DNA of 64,000 nt from Promethearchaeota archaeon (GTDB lineage Archaea; Asgardarchaeota; Lokiarchaeia; Sigyniarchaeales; SOKP01): assembly GCA_048940925.1 (NCBI GenBank), contig JBHLOC010000004.1:96554-160553 (forward strand). The letters are read 5' to 3'. The translations under genes were made by a program, and so were the position numbers. Under the pieces are notes generated by a model, which had not been told where the DNA came from, did no database searches, and saw only the letters and a list, made by a program, of their open reading frames with translations. Of this stretch, positions 17,370-24,800 are shown piece by piece; the stretch's first letter is position 1, and every line of letters starts with the position of its first letter.

Positions 17370-18638
17370 TTAAGTGCCTTCTTCGTAACCGTGGATGTAA
17401 TTATATTGTTCTTCCGTTAGTTTGTCAATCTCGACACCCATCGCCTGCAACTTAAGAAATCCAACTTCGTCGTCAATATGAGCAGGTATTTCAATCATTC
17501 CAGGCTTAAGTGAATCTTTATTTTTAACTATGAACTCAGACATTAACGATTGGAGCGCAAAAGACATATCCATCACTTCACTTGGATGTCCTTCTGACAA
17601 CACAAGATTAGCTAATCGTCCTTTAGCCAATAAATAGACTTTCTTTCCTGAGGGAAATGTTAGTTCTTCCACATCTTTCCTTATGGGCTTTATTTCTTTA
17701 GAATATTCATATAACTCCTTTGTGGGTATCTCGATATCAAAGTGCCCAAGATTACCCAGAATGACATCATCTTTAAGTTTATCGAACATTTCCTTTGTTG
17801 GAGCAATTACATGTTTGCAACCTGTTGCCGTAAGAATGATATCTGCTTCAGGAATTGCCTTTGCGATAGGTTTTACTTGATATCCAGCAAATTTCGCTTG
17901 AAGAGCTTTAATTGGATCAACTTCTGTTACAATTACATTTGCACCTAACCCACGAGCTCTCAACGCCATCCCGCTACTGCAATGACCGTATCCGCATATC
18001 AGACAAGCCTTACCTGCAAACAAAACATGCATCCCATAAATAGCCGAAACTATCCCTTGTCCTGTTCCTAATTCGTTGTCAAATTGATTTTTACATCGAG
18101 CATCATTTACAGGAAATAAGGGTACTTTTAAAACACTCTTTTTTTCCATCGCTCTGAACCTTTTAACCCCAGTTGTCGTTTCTTCTTGACATGCTATTAT
18201 TGTTCCGGATGAGATAAGATCCTGATACTCCTGATGTGCCGTGACAATCATATCGCCACCATCATCAATTAAGATATTTGGTTTACCATCTAAACACTGT
18301 CTTATACACCAATAGAATTCCTCATCTGTATTACCACGCCACGCGAATACATTTATTCCTTCCTGAACCAGAGCTGCTGCAACATCATCTTGAGTAGACA
18401 GAGGATTACTTCCACATAAATATACATCAGCACCTCCAATTTTTAAAGTACGTGCTAAATTGCCTGTTTCTTTTGTAATATGGAGACAACCTGCAATTGT
18501 GATACCTTTTAGTGGTTTTTCTTCAGCAAAACGATCTCTCAGGATTTTCGCAGTTACAGGCATTTTATTTTCTGCAATATATAGGGCTTCCTTTCCTTTT
18601 TCTACTAAACTTTCGTCAGCAACTTTATAATTTACCAT
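17370..18638 (-). CDS. ahcY: Adenosylhomocysteinase
   Basis: CLHIT.ET, SNPLSTQDD, EETTTG, GHFDIEI, GRLANL, GHPSEVMDMSF. Confidence 0.97.
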   Translation of the reverse strand: MVNYKVADESLVEKGKEALYIAENKMPVTAKILRDRFAEEKPLKGITIAGCLHITKETGNLARTLKIGGADVYLCGSNPLSTQDDVAAALVQEGINVFAWRGNTDEEFYWCIRQCLDGKPNILIDDGGDMIVTAHQEYQDLISSGTIIACQEETTTGVKRFRAMEKKSVLKVPLFPVNDARCKNQFDNELGTGQGIVSAIYGMHVLFAGKACLICGYGHCSSGMALRARGLGANVIVTEVDPIKALQAKFAGYQVKPIAKAIPEADIILTATGCKHVIAPTKEMFDKLKDDVILGNLGHFDIEIPTKELYEYSKEIKPIRKDVEELTFPSGKKVYLLAKGRLANLVLSEGHPSEVMDMSFALQSLMSEFIVKNKDSLKPGMIEIPAHIDDEVGFLKLQAMGVEIDKLTEEQYNYIHGYEEGT

Positions 18639-18751
18639 TTAAATTCACTTATATGATTTTATAATTTATAATTTTAATTAATTAATAAAGCTATTTTTGG
18701 TGAAATGCAAATATTTTTATAATAAATTATACATATAATTAATATTTCCAA

Positions 18752-20080
18752 ATGAAAATGCAAAATTGTAATATTATGAATGATAAAAAAGATAGGCTAG
18801 AAATCCGACATTTTATAAAAAATTTAAGTGGAAAATCCAAATTCGTTATTTCAAAAAAGTCCCGTGCGATAGGTATTTCTAGACAAACCTATCAAAACAA
18901 ACTTGATAATTTAAGGAATCGAAAAATAATTACTAATTTCACAATTAATATCAATCCTAATCTTAAACCAAATAATCTAAAATATGTCATGCTTGAAATA
19001 AAAACTAACCCAAAAGAACCTGAACTTGTTGAACAATTGCTGAAAATCCCTCAAATAACAATGTTAAATGGTATTTTTGGAGAGTTTTCTCTATTTGCCT
19101 TATTTATCTTTAAATCCCCCGAGGAATATTATCAGATATTAAATAATATTGATAAGATTATGGCACGATCATATTTCAAAAAATATCAGATCATTGAAAC
19201 TATAAAGGTGTTTAAAACAAATGGAATTAGCTTAAGAAGCTTAAATATGAGTTACGAAGAACAATTCGTAGAACAATTAAATTGCATAATGAAACAGAAA
19301 AAAGATTATGAAACTAATTCAGATTCTACAATTGAGAATATTGAATTAAAACTTGCAGAAAAAGTTGATTTAAATCAAATTAGTCGAAATTATATGGATA
19401 TTGAGTATAATCCTAAGAAATTTCCGGGTATCCTTATTAAGATTGAAAAATTTAACATAACTATTTTAATTTTTTCAAGTGGAAAAATAGTTGTAACAGG
19501 TTTAAGAGAAACACAGGACACAGAGAAGGTAATAAATGAGATAATAAAAACTATGAGGAAGTTTGGGATAAATTTAGATAAGAAAACAATCGATCTAAAT
19601 CTTAAAATAGATAATATTGATTATGAAATATTACAAATTTTACGTGATCAGCAAGGAGATAAACCAATATCTACATATGAAATAAAATCAATCTTTAAGG
19701 AACAATTTAGTAATGATATTTCACAATCAACAATCCATAATAGAATTAAGAACCTTGAAAGCCAAAATATAATTCTTAATTACACGATTAATTTCTCTCC
19801 AAAAGAATTAGGGTATAAAGGTAAATTTATACTCCGAATAAAACCAAAAAATCCATCTAAATACAATGAACTTGCCTTCAAATTAGAAAATAACAAAAAC
19901 ATCACTGATCTTTTTCGAATAGGCGAACAGTATGGCTTATTAGCTATTGTTCGTGTAAAGAAAATAGAGGATTATGGAAATTTTTTAAGAGAACTTTATC
20001 TAACAGAGGAAATTGAAGATACTTTTACTCATTTCGTTTTAGATGAATTAATCAAATATACTAATTTTTTAATTTTTTAA
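18752..20080 (+). CDS. Tandem Lrp/AsnC-type regulator with an internal TBP (TATA-binding) domain
   Basis: wHTH+RAM (aa ~15-160), TBP repeat IEYNPKKFPG...ILIFSSGKIVVTGLR (aa ~193-275), second wHTH+RAM (IDNIDYEILQIL...SQSTIHNRIKNLE...GEQYGLL). Confidence 0.85.
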   Translation: MKMQNCNIMNDKKDRLEIRHFIKNLSGKSKFVISKKSRAIGISRQTYQNKLDNLRNRKIITNFTININPNLKPNNLKYVMLEIKTNPKEPELVEQLLKIPQITMLNGIFGEFSLFALFIFKSPEEYYQILNNIDKIMARSYFKKYQIIETIKVFKTNGISLRSLNMSYEEQFVEQLNCIMKQKKDYETNSDSTIENIELKLAEKVDLNQISRNYMDIEYNPKKFPGILIKIEKFNITILIFSSGKIVVTGLRETQDTEKVINEIIKTMRKFGINLDKKTIDLNLKIDNIDYEILQILRDQQGDKPISTYEIKSIFKEQFSNDISQSTIHNRIKNLESQNIILNYTINFSPKELGYKGKFILRIKPKNPSKYNELAFKLENNKNITDLFRIGEQYGLLAIVRVKKIEDYGNFLRELYLTEEIEDTFTHFVLDELIKYTNFLIF

Positions 20081-20193
20081 GAAAACAAGCTTTCAATGAT
20101 AAAATAATTTCTGAGGAGTAAATTCTTAATAATCTTAGAAAATTTCAATAAATTAGAAATAAAAAAAAATCTTCACCAAAAATATCGTATATA

Positions 20194-22284
20194 TTGAAAG
20201 GTATGAATTTTTTCTTTGAATTAAAAGCCAGTAGAATAGGTTATTCAAGAATAGGGCGGATATCATTATCGAAAGATCGGAAGCTTTATATAAATACTCC
20301 GAATTTAATGATTCCTATAAAGAATTCGTTAATGAAACAGTTTAGTTTTATACAAGAATTCGAAAGTCATAAACTCTTTATCATTTCAAAAGAGATATTT
20401 TTAAGAATTGGATTTCTTCGTGAAAAGTTTAAAGACACAGGATTTATTTTTTCTTATAATGGGACTTTTGAGAAATTTGAAGATATTTTAATACGAAATT
20501 TAGATATCTTCACTGAAGACAATATCATTTCAATATTACCATTTAATGTTCCTACAACTTCTATTAATAAAGATTTTGCAGAAGTAGAAATAACTGCATA
20601 TCTTAAAAAGGCTAAAAAGATCTTAAAACAATATCCAAATCTTAATTTTGGTATAACCATTAGAATTTTTGATTATACTGAATTGTTTGATCTCTATATT
20701 CCGATTATAAAAAAGAATGAAAATATTAAAATTCTAAACCTATCTGACATTTTTGATAATTTCAACAATTTTAGAGGTATTGCAAAAATTATATCTGAAG
20801 TTAAAGCTGAATTGGATAATAATCTTGTTGTAATGGCTTCAGGTAGGATAATTCCTAAATTATATCCTATTTTAGTATATTTAGGAATTGATTTAATTGA
20901 TAGCTCCTTTTTATTATATTTATCAGCTGAAAATTTCTACGACACAATAGAGTATCTTCTGCCAATATATAAAGTTAGGTATTTTCCCTGTGCCTGTGTG
21001 GCATGTAAAGGAAAATTGAAGAATCTTTTTGACATTAAACATTCTTCTGAAAAAATAGATTTATTATGTCTTCATAATCTCATATCAGCAACTAATTACA
21101 TTAATAAAATTAGCCAATATTTAAACTATGAAGATTACAGAACATTTGTTGAAAAATCTACCTTTGATGATACCAATTTAATCTCAATTCTAAAAATTTT
21201 AGATAAAGACTATTTTCATTTAATGAGATATGAAACACCGATAACTATTAAAAACAGAACTATTAGATGCCTTGGACCAACTTCATATAACCGCCCAGAT
21301 TTTCGAGAATACAGAGAAAGAACTTTAACTAATTTTGGACCTGAACCATGGACTACTTTAATTATCTTACTTCCATGCTCAGCTAAAAAACCTTATTCTG
21401 AATCTAAATCTCATAAGTTATTTTATAAAAAAATAAGAAAATTTTCAGAATTTCCAAATTTCCAAGAATTTATTCTAACTTCTCCTTTAGGGGTGATTCC
21501 AAGACAACTTGAAAACATTTATCCTGTTAATTCGTATGATATTTCAGTTACAGGTGATTGGAATAATGAAGAAATAAATATCACAGCTAATATGCTTATA
21601 AAAATATTAGAAAAATACAATAATGATATTCCGATAATTTGTCATCTTAAAGATGAATATTATGAGATTGTTAAAAGAGTTAAATCTAAATTAGCTCATA
21701 AATTCTTTTTTACCACAGTTTCAGATAAATTAACCTCAAAAGAATCTCTTCAATCATTAGAAGATTTAATTAATGAATATAAAGATATCTTTAAATCCAA
21801 ACAGCAATTAAAGAAAGGAAATTGCTTAACTAAATCGTGGATTAGAAAATTTAATAAAATTTTAGATTATCAATTTGGTATTGGTTCAGGAATGAGAGTG
21901 ATTTCACAAGAATTAACACAAATCAAACTTAAGTCTAATGGAAATGTTAATTTAATAGATAAAAAAAGCAAGGTATTATTGGGTATTTTCAGATCATCTA
22001 CGGGTCAAATTGATTTAACACTTAAGGGAATTAATCGATTAGTAAAAACACCTTATTCTATAGATTCAAATACAATTGTATTTGATGCAAATTTTATCAG
22101 AGGTAATACACTATTTCGAAAGGGCATAATAGCTTTCAGTCGAAATTTAATTCCAAATAATTTTACATATGTATTAAATAAAGATAAGAACGATATAATT
22201 GGAACTGGAAATTTATTAGTAGGGTCGAATTTTATAAAAAATTCTAAGACTGGGAGAGTAGTAAAAATCAATGATAAAAAATAG
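20194..22284 (+). CDS. arcS: Archaeosine synthase alpha subunit (ArcS/TgtA2)
   Basis: TGT-like fold, CACVAC...HN Zn site, LPCSAKKPYSESKSH, TSPLG.IPR.LE..YP...YD..VTG.W, C-terminal PUA. Confidence 0.9.
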   Translation: MKGMNFFFELKASRIGYSRIGRISLSKDRKLYINTPNLMIPIKNSLMKQFSFIQEFESHKLFIISKEIFLRIGFLREKFKDTGFIFSYNGTFEKFEDILIRNLDIFTEDNIISILPFNVPTTSINKDFAEVEITAYLKKAKKILKQYPNLNFGITIRIFDYTELFDLYIPIIKKNENIKILNLSDIFDNFNNFRGIAKIISEVKAELDNNLVVMASGRIIPKLYPILVYLGIDLIDSSFLLYLSAENFYDTIEYLLPIYKVRYFPCACVACKGKLKNLFDIKHSSEKIDLLCLHNLISATNYINKISQYLNYEDYRTFVEKSTFDDTNLISILKILDKDYFHLMRYETPITIKNRTIRCLGPTSYNRPDFREYRERTLTNFGPEPWTTLIILLPCSAKKPYSESKSHKLFYKKIRKFSEFPNFQEFILTSPLGVIPRQLENIYPVNSYDISVTGDWNNEEINITANMLIKILEKYNNDIPIICHLKDEYYEIVKRVKSKLAHKFFFTTVSDKLTSKESLQSLEDLINEYKDIFKSKQQLKKGNCLTKSWIRKFNKILDYQFGIGSGMRVISQELTQIKLKSNGNVNLIDKKSKVLLGIFRSSTGQIDLTLKGINRLVKTPYSIDSNTIVFDANFIRGNTLFRKGIIAFSRNLIPNNFTYVLNKDKNDIIGTGNLLVGSNFIKNSKTGRVVKINDKK

Positions 22285-23371
22285 GAATTTAAAAGAATAT
22301 AATGAAATTGTTGCAGAAAAAGTTAAATTTTTCAGAGAAAAAGCTCTAAAAAATAAAAAAAAATATGAGAAAGAGCAACTGAGTCAACCTGTTGCATTTT
22401 GGATAAAAAAGGACAGATTAATTAACGAAATAGGAAAGCAATTTACAATTATACTAAGAACCAAAGGATGTAGTTGGTCACTAAGTAAAACTGGAGGGTG
22501 TACGATGTGTGGATATATAAATGATGCAAATATTGATGACATTGAGCAATCTCAAGTTATAAATCAATTCATTTATGCAATTAACTCTAAAATGAGCGAA
22601 ATAGAAGAAGATCATGATAAATTTATTTTAAAAATATTTAATTCGGGAAGCTTTTTCGATGAAAAAGAGATCTCTGAAGTAGTTAGGAGAACTATTTATG
22701 AAAAAATCGCAGGAATCAAAAGCATTAAAGAAGTTGTCTTAGAAAGTAGATTAGAATATATTACTACAGAAATCCTTTCTGAGATAAGAGAATTTCTAAA
22801 AGATAAATATGTTGAGATTGCAATTGGACTTGAAACTGTGAATGATTATATTAGAAATAATTATATTAATAAGGGATTTCTCTATGAAAATTTTAAAGAA
22901 GTATGTAATGAATGTAAAGGGTTTGATATAGGTATAAAAGCTTATTTATTATTTAAACCACCATTTCTTAATGAACAAGCTGCTATAGATGATTGTGTAA
23001 ATTCAATTAGAAATCTTATTGAGCAAGATATTAATACGATTTCGATTAATCCCTTAAACATTCAAAAAGGTACTCTAGTGGAATATCTATGGTATCAAAA
23101 TAGATATAGACCTCCGTGGTATTATTCCTTATTTAAATGTTTAAAAAAATCACTTACCCAAAAAGATTTAGAAAAAGTCCGAATACTATCTGATCCGAGT
23201 GGAGCTGGAACGAGGAGAGGGATACATAATTGTTTGAAAAAGGAATGTGAGAATTCTGCAAAGCAAATGCTTAGTAATTTTGTTCTCTCTCAAAATTTAT
23301 CTGAGTTGAAACAAAATGGATTTGAGTGTAATTGTAAAAGCAAATATCAATTAGAGAAAAATTATTGTTGA
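22271..23371 (+). CDS. Archaeosine biosynthesis radical SAM protein RaSEA
   Basis: LRTKGCSW.....GCTMCGY, KIFNSGSFFD, KPPFL.E, YRPPW, RGIHNC; overlaps arcS. Confidence 0.92.
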   Translation: MIKNRNLKEYNEIVAEKVKFFREKALKNKKKYEKEQLSQPVAFWIKKDRLINEIGKQFTIILRTKGCSWSLSKTGGCTMCGYINDANIDDIEQSQVINQFIYAINSKMSEIEEDHDKFILKIFNSGSFFDEKEISEVVRRTIYEKIAGIKSIKEVVLESRLEYITTEILSEIREFLKDKYVEIAIGLETVNDYIRNNYINKGFLYENFKEVCNECKGFDIGIKAYLLFKPPFLNEQAAIDDCVNSIRNLIEQDINTISINPLNIQKGTLVEYLWYQNRYRPPWYYSLFKCLKKSLTQKDLEKVRILSDPSGAGTRRGIHNCLKKECENSAKQMLSNFVLSQNLSELKQNGFECNCKSKYQLEKNYC

Positions 23372-23819: not shown

Positions 23820-24800
23820 GTGTGTTTTATTTCAAGTTGGAGGGAAATAAATTCTACTTCAAATGAGAACTTGGGTATAGAAAGTGGTATTTGCTCTGAA
23901 TGTGGTAAAGCTATTTTTTTTGATGAAAATAGAGGGTTAATTGTATGTGAAGAATGTGGTTTAGTTCATTCCGAAAAACATATTGATCGTGGACCAGAAT
24001 GGAGAGCGTTTGATGCAGATCAGAAAAAAAAGAGAACTAGAACTGGCGCACCTATGACCTATATGATACATGACAAGGGACTTAGTACTATTATTGATTG
24101 GAAAAACCGAGACATATTTGGTAAAGAAATACCAGCTAAATTGAGGGGACAAATTTATCGTCTTCGAAAATGGCAGAGTCGAATCAGAGTATCAGATGCA
24201 ACAGAAAGAAATCTTACTTTTGCTCTTAGCGAACTCGATAGAATGGCTTCCAACCTAGATCTTCAAAAAAACTTAAGAGAATGTGCTGCTAAAATCTATC
24301 GAGATGCTGTAGAAGCGCATCTAATTCGTGGTAGAAGCATTGAAGGTGTTGCTGCTGCAAGTTTATATGCTGCTTGTAGAATGTATAAAGTACCAAGGAC
24401 GTTAAATGAGATTGCTGATGTAGCTCGAGTTGATAAGAAGGAAATTAGTAGATCTTTTCGATTTATTTCAAAAGAACTTGATTTAAATTTAAATCCCACT
24501 AAACCACTTGATTTTCTTACAAGATTTATTTCTGAATTGGATTTAACTACAAAATGTCATAGAATAGCAAAAACGATTATAAGAATGGCAGAAGATCGAG
24601 GTTTAACTTCGGGACGAGGCCCTACAGGCGTATGTGCAGCTGCAATTTATGCATCATGTATTTTGTCTAATGAACGAAGGACACAGAGGAGTATAGCTCG
24701 TGTTAGTTGTGTAACAGAAGTAACTGTTCGAAATCGCTTTAGCGAACTAGTGGAAAATTTGAAACTTAGGATTTCATTGAAAAAGAATAGCAAGATTTAA
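23820..24800 (+). CDS. tfb: Transcription initiation factor IIB
   Basis: CSECG...VCEECG Zn ribbon, GPEWRAF, HDKGLST, two cyclin repeats, VTEVTVRNR. Confidence 0.97.

Follow-up and report, generated by a model that had tools for sequence, protein, structure and literature searches.

Can half of a general initiation factor serve inside a gene-specific regulator, and what would it do there? The question is raised by one unbroken open reading frame (ORF) of 442 amino acids (aa) on the forward strand (18752..20080, +) of a 64,000-nt stretch of a Promethearchaeota archaeon genome (Lokiarchaeia, Sigyniarchaeales; assembly GCA_048940925.1, contig JBHLOC010000004.1, positions 96,554 to 160,553), hereafter the window. 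Its product (P0001) consists of two Lrp/AsnC units in tandem, each a winged helix-turn-helix (wHTH) followed by a RAM domain, with a single lobe of TATA-binding protein (TBP) inserted between them. We find that this Lrp-TBP-Lrp fusion is real, conserved and lineage-specific, and sequence comparisons present it as a variant of a tandem Lrp regulator in which a TBP N-terminal lobe is optional. The role that we tentatively favor for the lobe, with a probability of roughly 0.4, is that of a single-lobe accessory DNA-contact module. The protein is laid out as follows:

18776..18778, +, probable true start codon (M9), which yields 434 aa
18785..18961, +, wHTH 1 (aa 12–70); NCBIfam Lrp-type profiles cover aa 12–132
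18974..19231, +, RAM 1 (aa 75–160), the most conserved domain
19244..19327, +, linker A (aa 165–192), variable, with a predicted helix at 168–185
19328..19576, +, single TBP lobe (aa 193–275), of the TBP N-terminal lobe type
19577..19609, +, linker B (aa 276–286)
19610..19801, +, wHTH 2 (aa 287–350), supported by profiles and by the AlphaFold2 (AF2) model
19814..20071, +, RAM 2 (aa 355–440); best PF01037 stretch at aa 363–431

A sequence-only reading of this DNA had recognized the single TBP repeat between the two Lrp units, and a Pfam scan bears it out, as PF00352 (TBP) matches aa 199–271 with 71.2 bits (E = 6.6e-20), well over the cut-off of 22.9. Only one PF00352 stretch is present in the protein, i.e. 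there is one lobe and not two in tandem. NCBIfam TBP profiles align at aa 190–289 with 48–72 bits vs cut-offs of 181–347, and such scores, about a quarter of the cut-offs, are expected of half a TBP. Among solved structures, the lobe matches the Sulfolobus acidocaldarius TBP (1MP9) with an E of 2.8e-25, and TBPs of the PDB overall with E values of 1e-25 to 1e-15. The Lrp units are equally recognizable: PF01037 (AsnC_trans_reg) scores 54.3 bits vs a cut-off of 25 over two stretches, with the listed stretch falling in RAM 2; NCBIfam full-length Lrp, LysM, AsnC, LrpA, and ChrS profiles align at aa 12–132 and aa 283–440; and the second unit matches FL11/PH1519, LrpA, and AsnC in a search of solved structures. 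Pfam HTH_24 (17 bits) and HTH_AsnC (15 bits) stay under their cut-offs in this protein, while AF2 places three helices before each RAM (aa 12–25, 33–40, and 44–56 in wHTH 1), and in the orthologue P0122 the HTH_24 and HTH_AsnC-type matches attain whole-protein cut-offs.

The full-length AF2 model has a pLDDT of 63.5 and a pTM of 0.35, too low to be read for domain arrangement, and serves here for secondary structure and for the fold of the TBP lobe; the lobe itself is folded at pLDDT 70–86. Foldseek aligns this model with 1mp9_A over 88 columns (root-mean-square deviation 3.2, 42% identity), and also with whole Lrp/AsnC chains at a TM of about 0.5 per target. Translation probably starts not at the first ATG (18752) but at the third (18776, M9), which is the conserved start: M9 is kept in at least 90% of the family, orthologues begin there, the database call for the gene (P0002) has 434 aa, and the 24 nt located 5' of the M9 ATG are conserved as a DNA motif in orthologous loci, even when out of frame.

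The fusion is not an artifact of assembly. More than 100 full-length proteins that combine PF01037 and PF00352 (400–443 aa, 57–82% identical) are found in NCBI, JGI, ENA, and Logan assemblies, publicly annotated as "Lrp/AsnC ligand binding domain-containing protein" or "hypothetical". A 3,018-bp contig of other sequencing runs spans 18600–20200 with 3 single-nucleotide polymorphisms, and each domain junction is bridged by separate contigs of a further run. As such, misassembly is excluded by independent assemblies and by the junctions themselves. By its own terms, the sequence-only reading would have fallen with an insert private to one genome and evolving neutrally; with more than 100 carriers and dN/dS values below 1 (see below), the insert is neither, yet it is optional.

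How this option is distributed was surveyed in 200 genomes sampled across the phylum, 40 of which belong to the window's GTDB family. Close orthologues are present in 39 of these 40, always with one copy per genome, while the other families in the sample hold only distant tandem Lrps or canonical TBPs. Besides the window's own genome, 11 sampled genomes carry the lobe and about 28 have the gene without it, so that roughly a quarter of the family's genomes are carriers, and both states are found inside the window's genus as well as inside a second genus. The organism names given to these proteins by submitters vary (Lokiarchaeia, Promethearchaeota, Thor-, Hermod-, and Heimdallarchaeota). In the insert-less proteins, the end of RAM 1 reaches the DNIDY motif of wHTH 2 via about 8 residues, and aa ~168–285 are gone.

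On a tree built from the Lrp columns alone and rooted with more distant tandem Lrps, insert-less lineages are basal and the insert-bearers form one derived clade, inside which insert-less forms are nested at least 3 times. A minimum of 6 state changes is needed on this tree, 3 of them forced by well-supported branches. The simplest history would be a single gain, which fits because the basal lineages and the outgroups have no lobe, followed by repeated in-frame loss (at least 3 times). Two proteins represent deletion intermediates: P0034, where linker A, the first strand (S1), and helix H1 are left and the rest of the lobe is gone, and P0093, where linker A alone is left. Linker A is itself missing from the short (86–87 aa) forms of the insert. 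Separately, the tandem Lrp gene tree departs from GTDB genus labels (loci L013–L042), with both states and several deep branches within genera g1 and g4, a mismatch that allele exchange, hidden paralogy, or coarse genus limits could produce.

Where did the lobe come from? The genome has two canonical two-lobe TBPs, TBP-A (contig C8, ~38.8–39.4 kb, L001) and TBP-B (contig C58, ~41.2–41.7 kb, L003), and sister genomes have 1–4 canonical TBPs each. Averaged over 23 diverse inserts, the lobe is 43% identical to the TBP-A N lobe, 35% to that of TBP-B, and 26–28% to the C lobes (26% for TBP-A). The nearest non-insert neighbors on a lobe tree are likewise TBP-A-type N lobes; this tree (171 rows, 90 columns) is poorly resolved and was used only for identities and nearest neighbors. 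By these comparisons, the lobe derives from a TBP N-terminal lobe of the host itself, that of a TBP-A-like paralogue. Ahead of its first lobe, TBP-A has about 30 additional N-terminal aa that are strongly acidic (a Glu/Asp run).

Selection on the lobe differs in degree from that on its surroundings. Pairwise identity averaged over 105 insert-bearers is 0.70 in HTH1, 0.85 in RAM1, 0.72 in HTH2, and 0.79 in RAM2, while it is 0.45 in the TBP lobe and 0.37–0.39 in the linkers. For the lobe, each of the 51 usable pairs has a Nei-Gojobori dN/dS below 1, so the lobe is not evolving neutrally. In a 20-pair subset, its dN/dS ranges from 0.15 to 0.77 (median 0.32), whereas the medians of Lrp units 1 (aa 12–160) and 2 are 0.095 and 0.127. 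These ratios indicate purifying but relaxed selection on the lobe, with a constraint about three times weaker than that on the Lrp units.

The pattern of conservation inside the lobe is informative. Only F224 (the Phe of FPG, yeast F99) and G244 are invariant, while L207, I210, Y219, P221, P225, G226, and G272 are kept in at least 90% of members. The key positions compare as follows with those of 72 canonical N lobes and 69 canonical C lobes (yeast equivalents in brackets):

223 (R98): 97% K/R in the insert family, more basic than canonical lobes
224 (F99): 100% F in the insert family (96 of 96 members), 100% F in canonical lobes
230 (R105): 82% K/R in the insert family, similar in canonical lobes
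241 (F116, i.e. L5.1): 85% F in the insert family, 96–100% F in canonical lobes
245 (K120): 91% K/R in the insert family, similar in canonical lobes
247 (V122): 86% V/I in the insert family, similar in canonical lobes
249 (T124): 38% T in the insert family, 88% in N lobes and 75% in C lobes
250 (G125): 75% G in the insert family, 100% in N lobes and 99% in C lobes

The window's protein has both kinking phenylalanines, F224 in FPG and F241 in LIFSSGK, and an altered S1, all of which had been noticed from the sequence alone. In S1, which from the TBP fold we take to lie at the dyad of TBP, N196 is kept and E198 stands for the Val equivalent in a HMMER alignment to 1MP9, with a register that is ambiguous under MAFFT. 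The signature (I/L)(E/Q)N(I/V)VA(S/T) is not found there, and the Pfam match begins at profile position 11 of 85. Across the family, position 196 is N, K, or D (41, 39, and 10%) and position 198 is E, S, or I (49, 21, and 18%), so that the outward positions of the strand read N/K/D, E/S/I, and E/D/K, and S1 is partly missing in about 70% of members. The stirrup is of the N-lobe type (Y-N-P-x-K/R-F-P-G). Glu residues at stirrup positions L3.2 and L3.4 of the TBP C lobe contact transcription factor B (TFB)/TFIIB (PMC7221094), and this pair is absent here: the window's protein has N220 and K222, and the family has N or D (79 and 15%) and E, K, or Q (55, 15, and 14%).

What is kept, by contrast, is the outer part of the concave face. 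The equivalents of yeast R98, F99, I103, R105, T112, L114, F116, K120, and V122 have a top-residue frequency of 0.69 vs 0.70 for the core, and a class frequency of 0.90 vs 0.95. The inner, dyad-side concave positions and the exposed positions of the convex helices vary equally, with a top-residue frequency of 0.44 each.

The lobe is not alone in these genomes. A census of PF00352 in 41 genomes of the window's family counts 1–4 canonical TBPs in each genome and, beyond these, single lobes in other contexts, namely:

L006 1486..3012, +, TBP lobe-Ras GTPase-wHTH protein of 508 aa in the window's own genome (G000, contig C40, about 184.4–185.9 kb)
L043 776..1741, +, 321-aa protein with a C-terminal lobe (aa 232–305, 69 bits) in genome G071, contig C14
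L044 986..1252, −, free-standing 88-aa lobe (75 bits) in genome G132, contig C1

The first of these has its TBP lobe at aa 6–82, a Ras-family GTPase at 106–271, and an ArsR/MarR-type wHTH at 290–333, and its gene is divergent from an Elp3-like radical-SAM gene. This architecture recurs in 11 protein clusters (P0271–P0281), with close relatives that are without the lobe or have a receiver domain instead. The resolution of the lobe tree is insufficient to tell one capture event from two for the Lrp and GTPase lobes. In the 321-aa protein, the N-terminal ~230 aa are without a Pfam match, and the tandem Lrp of the same genome is insert-less. The 88-aa lobe has an intact S1 motif (IENIVG) and FPP where FPG is expected, and may represent an Asgard "mono-TBP" that acts as a homodimer. 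No split, free-standing lobe of the insert type was found, as a query with region 186–285 (low sensitivity) returned only four canonical TBPs from 45 candidates. With single lobes recurring in several protein settings of the same family, the TBP lobe thus acts, within this lineage, as a mobile accessory attached to wHTH regulators.

What, then, does the regulator regulate? The surroundings of the gene, which profiles confirm as the divergent ahcY and the downstream arcS-RaSEA-gar1-tfb run named in the sequence-only reading, include the following features:

17370..18638, −, ahcY (S-adenosylhomocysteine hydrolase), conserved divergent neighbor
18639..18775, no strand, divergent ahcY/Lrp promoter region with four blocks at least 90% conserved in 12 insert-bearing loci
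18669–18689, promoter block 1, TAATTTTAATTAATTAATAAA
18692–18722, promoter block 2
18727–18744, promoter block 3, of the ACA-TTAATTAATA type, present in insert-less loci too
18759–18772, promoter block 4, TGCAAAATTGTAAT, immediately before ATG 18776
20194..22284, +, ArcS-like archaeosine synthase (TGT + DUF5591), conserved downstream neighbor
22271–23371, +, RaSEA, next after arcS (338 bits vs a cut-off of 212)

The genes for Gar1 and TFB lie further downstream in the same run, with tfb (23820–24800) 3.7 kb downstream. The start of the RaSEA ORF overlaps the end of the ArcS-like ORF by 14 nt (22271–22284), which is consistent with translational coupling of arcS and RaSEA in one operon. The order ahcY, tandem Lrp (divergent), and arcS is found in 30 of 30 loci examined, with the lobe present or absent (arcS where the flank reaches), and this shared setting makes the insert-bearing and insert-less genes positional orthologues.

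The intergenic blocks stay at least 90% conserved while the dS of the coding sequence is about 1, i.e. with synonymous sites near saturation. The blocks are candidate TATA boxes and Lrp operators; specifically, we infer that 18727–18744, about 35 nt upstream of ATG 18776, may be the TATA box, and that TGCAAAATTGTAAT may be an operator overlapping the transcription start. TGCAAAATTGTAAT also resembles an Lrp-type operator. The fixed place of the gene beside ahcY, together with four long blocks conserved despite near-saturated synonymous sites, points to the strongly constrained tandem Lrp as a local, ligand-responsive regulator of the divergent promoter. In motif scans of the window, the conserved promoter motifs do not recur above chance and no further targets emerge; for example, TGCAAAATTGTAA with up to 2 mismatches has 6 matches vs 9.7 expected, and ACAWTTAATTAATA has 2 vs 1.1. 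Nor is an insert-specific promoter element evident, as the nearest insert-less loci (L025 and L027) have the same blocks and the ACA-TTAATTAAT block is likewise conserved at insert-less loci. The ahcY/arcS synteny, being the same without the insert, thus points to candidate targets of the Lrp part of the protein and not of the lobe.

Taken together, the reading we favor runs as follows. The two wHTH+RAM units would fold as an intramolecular pseudo-dimer and oligomerize like other Lrp proteins, and the regulator most likely controls the shared promoter region of about 115–137 bp, i.e. its own promoter and probably that of ahcY, upon binding of a small ligand. Into the linker between the units, once within one Lokiarchaeia-type family, an N-lobe copy of the host's TBP was acquired. 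This lobe would act alone, as an accessory minor-groove contact or kink made through the Phe pair and the basic/hydrophobic outer concave face, and would thereby supply the complex of Lrp and operator with a further contact at AT-rich or TATA-like DNA, e.g. by bending or occupying one TATA-like box. The TATA-occluding role suggested in the sequence-only reading is compatible with this, as is DNA bending. We prefer an accessory contact over a TBP-like saddle because the Phe-bearing outer face is kept, while the seam between lobes and the TFB interface are not. That a single lobe could contact DNA is argued by analogy with RNase HIII, whose single TBP-like lobe contacts the duplex minor groove through the aromatic residue at L5.1 (PMC7221094), a position whose Phe is a universally conserved DNA contact of TBP lobes (PMC7221094). 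The TBP lobe-Ras-wHTH proteins support it as well, given that the same genome family attaches single TBP lobes to another wHTH regulator.

Several observations weigh against this reading. In 15% of members, position 241 is not Phe (E, S, N, Y, C, L, or D instead); the closest relative, P0003, is one of these, with Ser. Acidic residues are frequent on the concave side of S1 (E198 in 49%, E/D200 in 66%), and only 38% of members keep Thr at the T124 equivalent. The concave and convex faces are those we assume by homology to the TBP fold, there being no solved structure of the protein, and the placement of the lobe relative to the HTHs is not readable from an AF2 model of such pLDDT and pTM. Finally, in-frame deletion has removed the lobe at least 3 times, and orthologues without it retain the same promoter blocks, so whatever it does is not essential; being dispensable and under relaxed constraint, it may have a modest role.

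Could the lobe contact proteins rather than DNA? As such a module, it would bind free TBP (through the concave face), TFB, or another factor, tethering or sequestering this partner at the promoter. Lrp activators of the Ptr2 type do act by recruiting TBP, tfb lies close downstream, and a conserved, exposed hydrophobic/basic patch is equally plausible as a protein interface. In eukaryotes, however, proteins usually dock on the TBP N lobe by way of the convex helices, and in the present lobe these helices are the most variable part. Moreover, the partners are candidates only and the canonical TFB interface (the Glu pair at L3.2/L3.4 of the C lobe; PMC7221094) is absent, and we consider this explanation unlikely.

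The same relaxed constraint raises the prospect of a tolerated spacer, i.e. a stably folded, near-neutral insertion in a permissive linker, maintained mainly because misfolding or partial deletion would do harm, and perhaps altering no more than spacing or oligomer geometry. The lobe is the fastest-evolving globular part of the protein (45% mean identity vs 70–85%, with a dN/dS about 3 times higher), at least 3 clean in-frame losses are joined by two proteins with a partial deletion (P0034 and P0093), and the same genera have orthologues without the insert at this locus. Against a spacer, dN/dS is well under 1 in every pair, the exposed outer-concave residues match the core in conservation although exposed residues elsewhere drift, an exposed Phe is retained in all 96 members, and a second, independent family of wHTH regulators in these genomes also bears a TBP lobe. 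In view of these, we regard a mere spacer as quite unlikely.

The saddle advanced in the sequence-only reading, in which the lobes of two Lrp protomers pair and bind a TATA box as a ligand-gated TBP surrogate or a TATA-occluding repressor, is improbable, and its strict form as a promoter-dedicated surrogate more so: Lrp proteins do oligomerize, the lobe is closely related to a real TBP lobe with the Phe pair in this and most other members, the intergenic region has several TATA-like blocks, and lobes may be able to function as homodimers, to judge from the stand-alone 88-aa lobe of a sister genome, but S1, the would-be seam with its central Asn/Val contacts, is unmatched by Pfam, variable or acidic, and partly lost in most members, and along with it the T124/G125 equivalents are among the least conserved positions (38% T, 75% G), the TFB-contact Glu pair is absent, and the lobe has been lost repeatedly. 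When two copies of the lobe (alignment A2) were put through complex prediction, the score was 0.01 and the mark 0.42, which counts neither for nor against pairing.

The fusion matters because a domain of a general initiation factor inside a gene-specific regulator is apparently undescribed. The single lobes of this Asgard family are close to working TBP (43–52% identity), and insert-bearing and insert-less orthologues at the same locus, with the same promoter, offer a natural comparison. This comparison bears on what one TBP lobe can do on DNA, and on whether TBP began one-lobed. Were the saddle true instead, the protein would be a gene-specific regulator supplying its own TATA-binding activity, and would show in a present-day organism the kind of homodimeric one-lobe protein from which TBP has been postulated to descend.

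How does the fusion compare with known systems? As the sequence-only reading had supposed, no description of an Lrp-TBP-Lrp or TBP-GTPase architecture was found in the searchable literature; the mentions of TBP in an ESCRT paper are irrelevant, as they concern adaptin-type helix-grip folds. With archaeal TBP (S. acidocaldarius 1MP9, P. woesei 1PCZ/1AIS, and the genome's own TBP-A), the lobe, which is 45% identical to the TBP-A N lobe, shares PF00352, FPG, (L/I)IFSxGK, both phenylalanines, the equivalents of K120 and V122, and the helix-grip fold. It differs in being one lobe instead of two, embedded in another protein, with a degenerate S1, poorly kept T124/G125 equivalents, and no TFB-contact Glu pair, and it falls far under NCBIfam TBP cut-offs (72 vs 270 bits).

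Each half of the protein is a wHTH plus RAM as in the Lrp/AsnC (FFRP) proteins FL11/PH1519 (1RI7, 2E1C), LrpA (1I1G), Escherichia coli AsnC (2CG4), Ptr2, and LysM, and its divergent arrangement with a metabolic gene is typical of local Lrp regulators. Unlike them, it has two units per chain and a foreign domain in the linker between the units. The insert-less tandem Lrp orthologues (P0122, 323 aa; loci L025–L042) have the same locus, the same promoter blocks, and 65–75% identity in both Lrp units, and differ by being without aa ~168–285.

Single-lobe TBP proteins have been described in Halobacteria (TbpA) and Thermococcales (~95 aa), and isolated recombinant architectures were mentioned in the same survey (Brindefalk et al. 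2013, PMC3597702); single-lobe archaeal versions have also been noted in passing (PMC7221094). Like the present lobe, halobacterial TbpA is single, has a sequence near that of the genuine TBP of its host, and is not essential (PMC3597702). These monopartite proteins are, by contrast, free-standing, and were found only in Euryarchaea in the 2013 survey (PMC3597702), whereas the lobe described here is internal to a 434/442-aa Asgard regulator. The N-terminal TBP-like domain of RNase HIII is likewise a single lobe fused to another functional domain; it is distant in sequence, bacterial, and partnered with a nuclease. Finally, the TBP lobe-Ras GTPase-wHTH proteins of the same lineage also place an N-lobe-type module on a wHTH regulator, as an optional part of their family. 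There, the lobe is N-terminal, its partners are a small GTPase and an ArsR/MarR-type wHTH, and S1 is better preserved.

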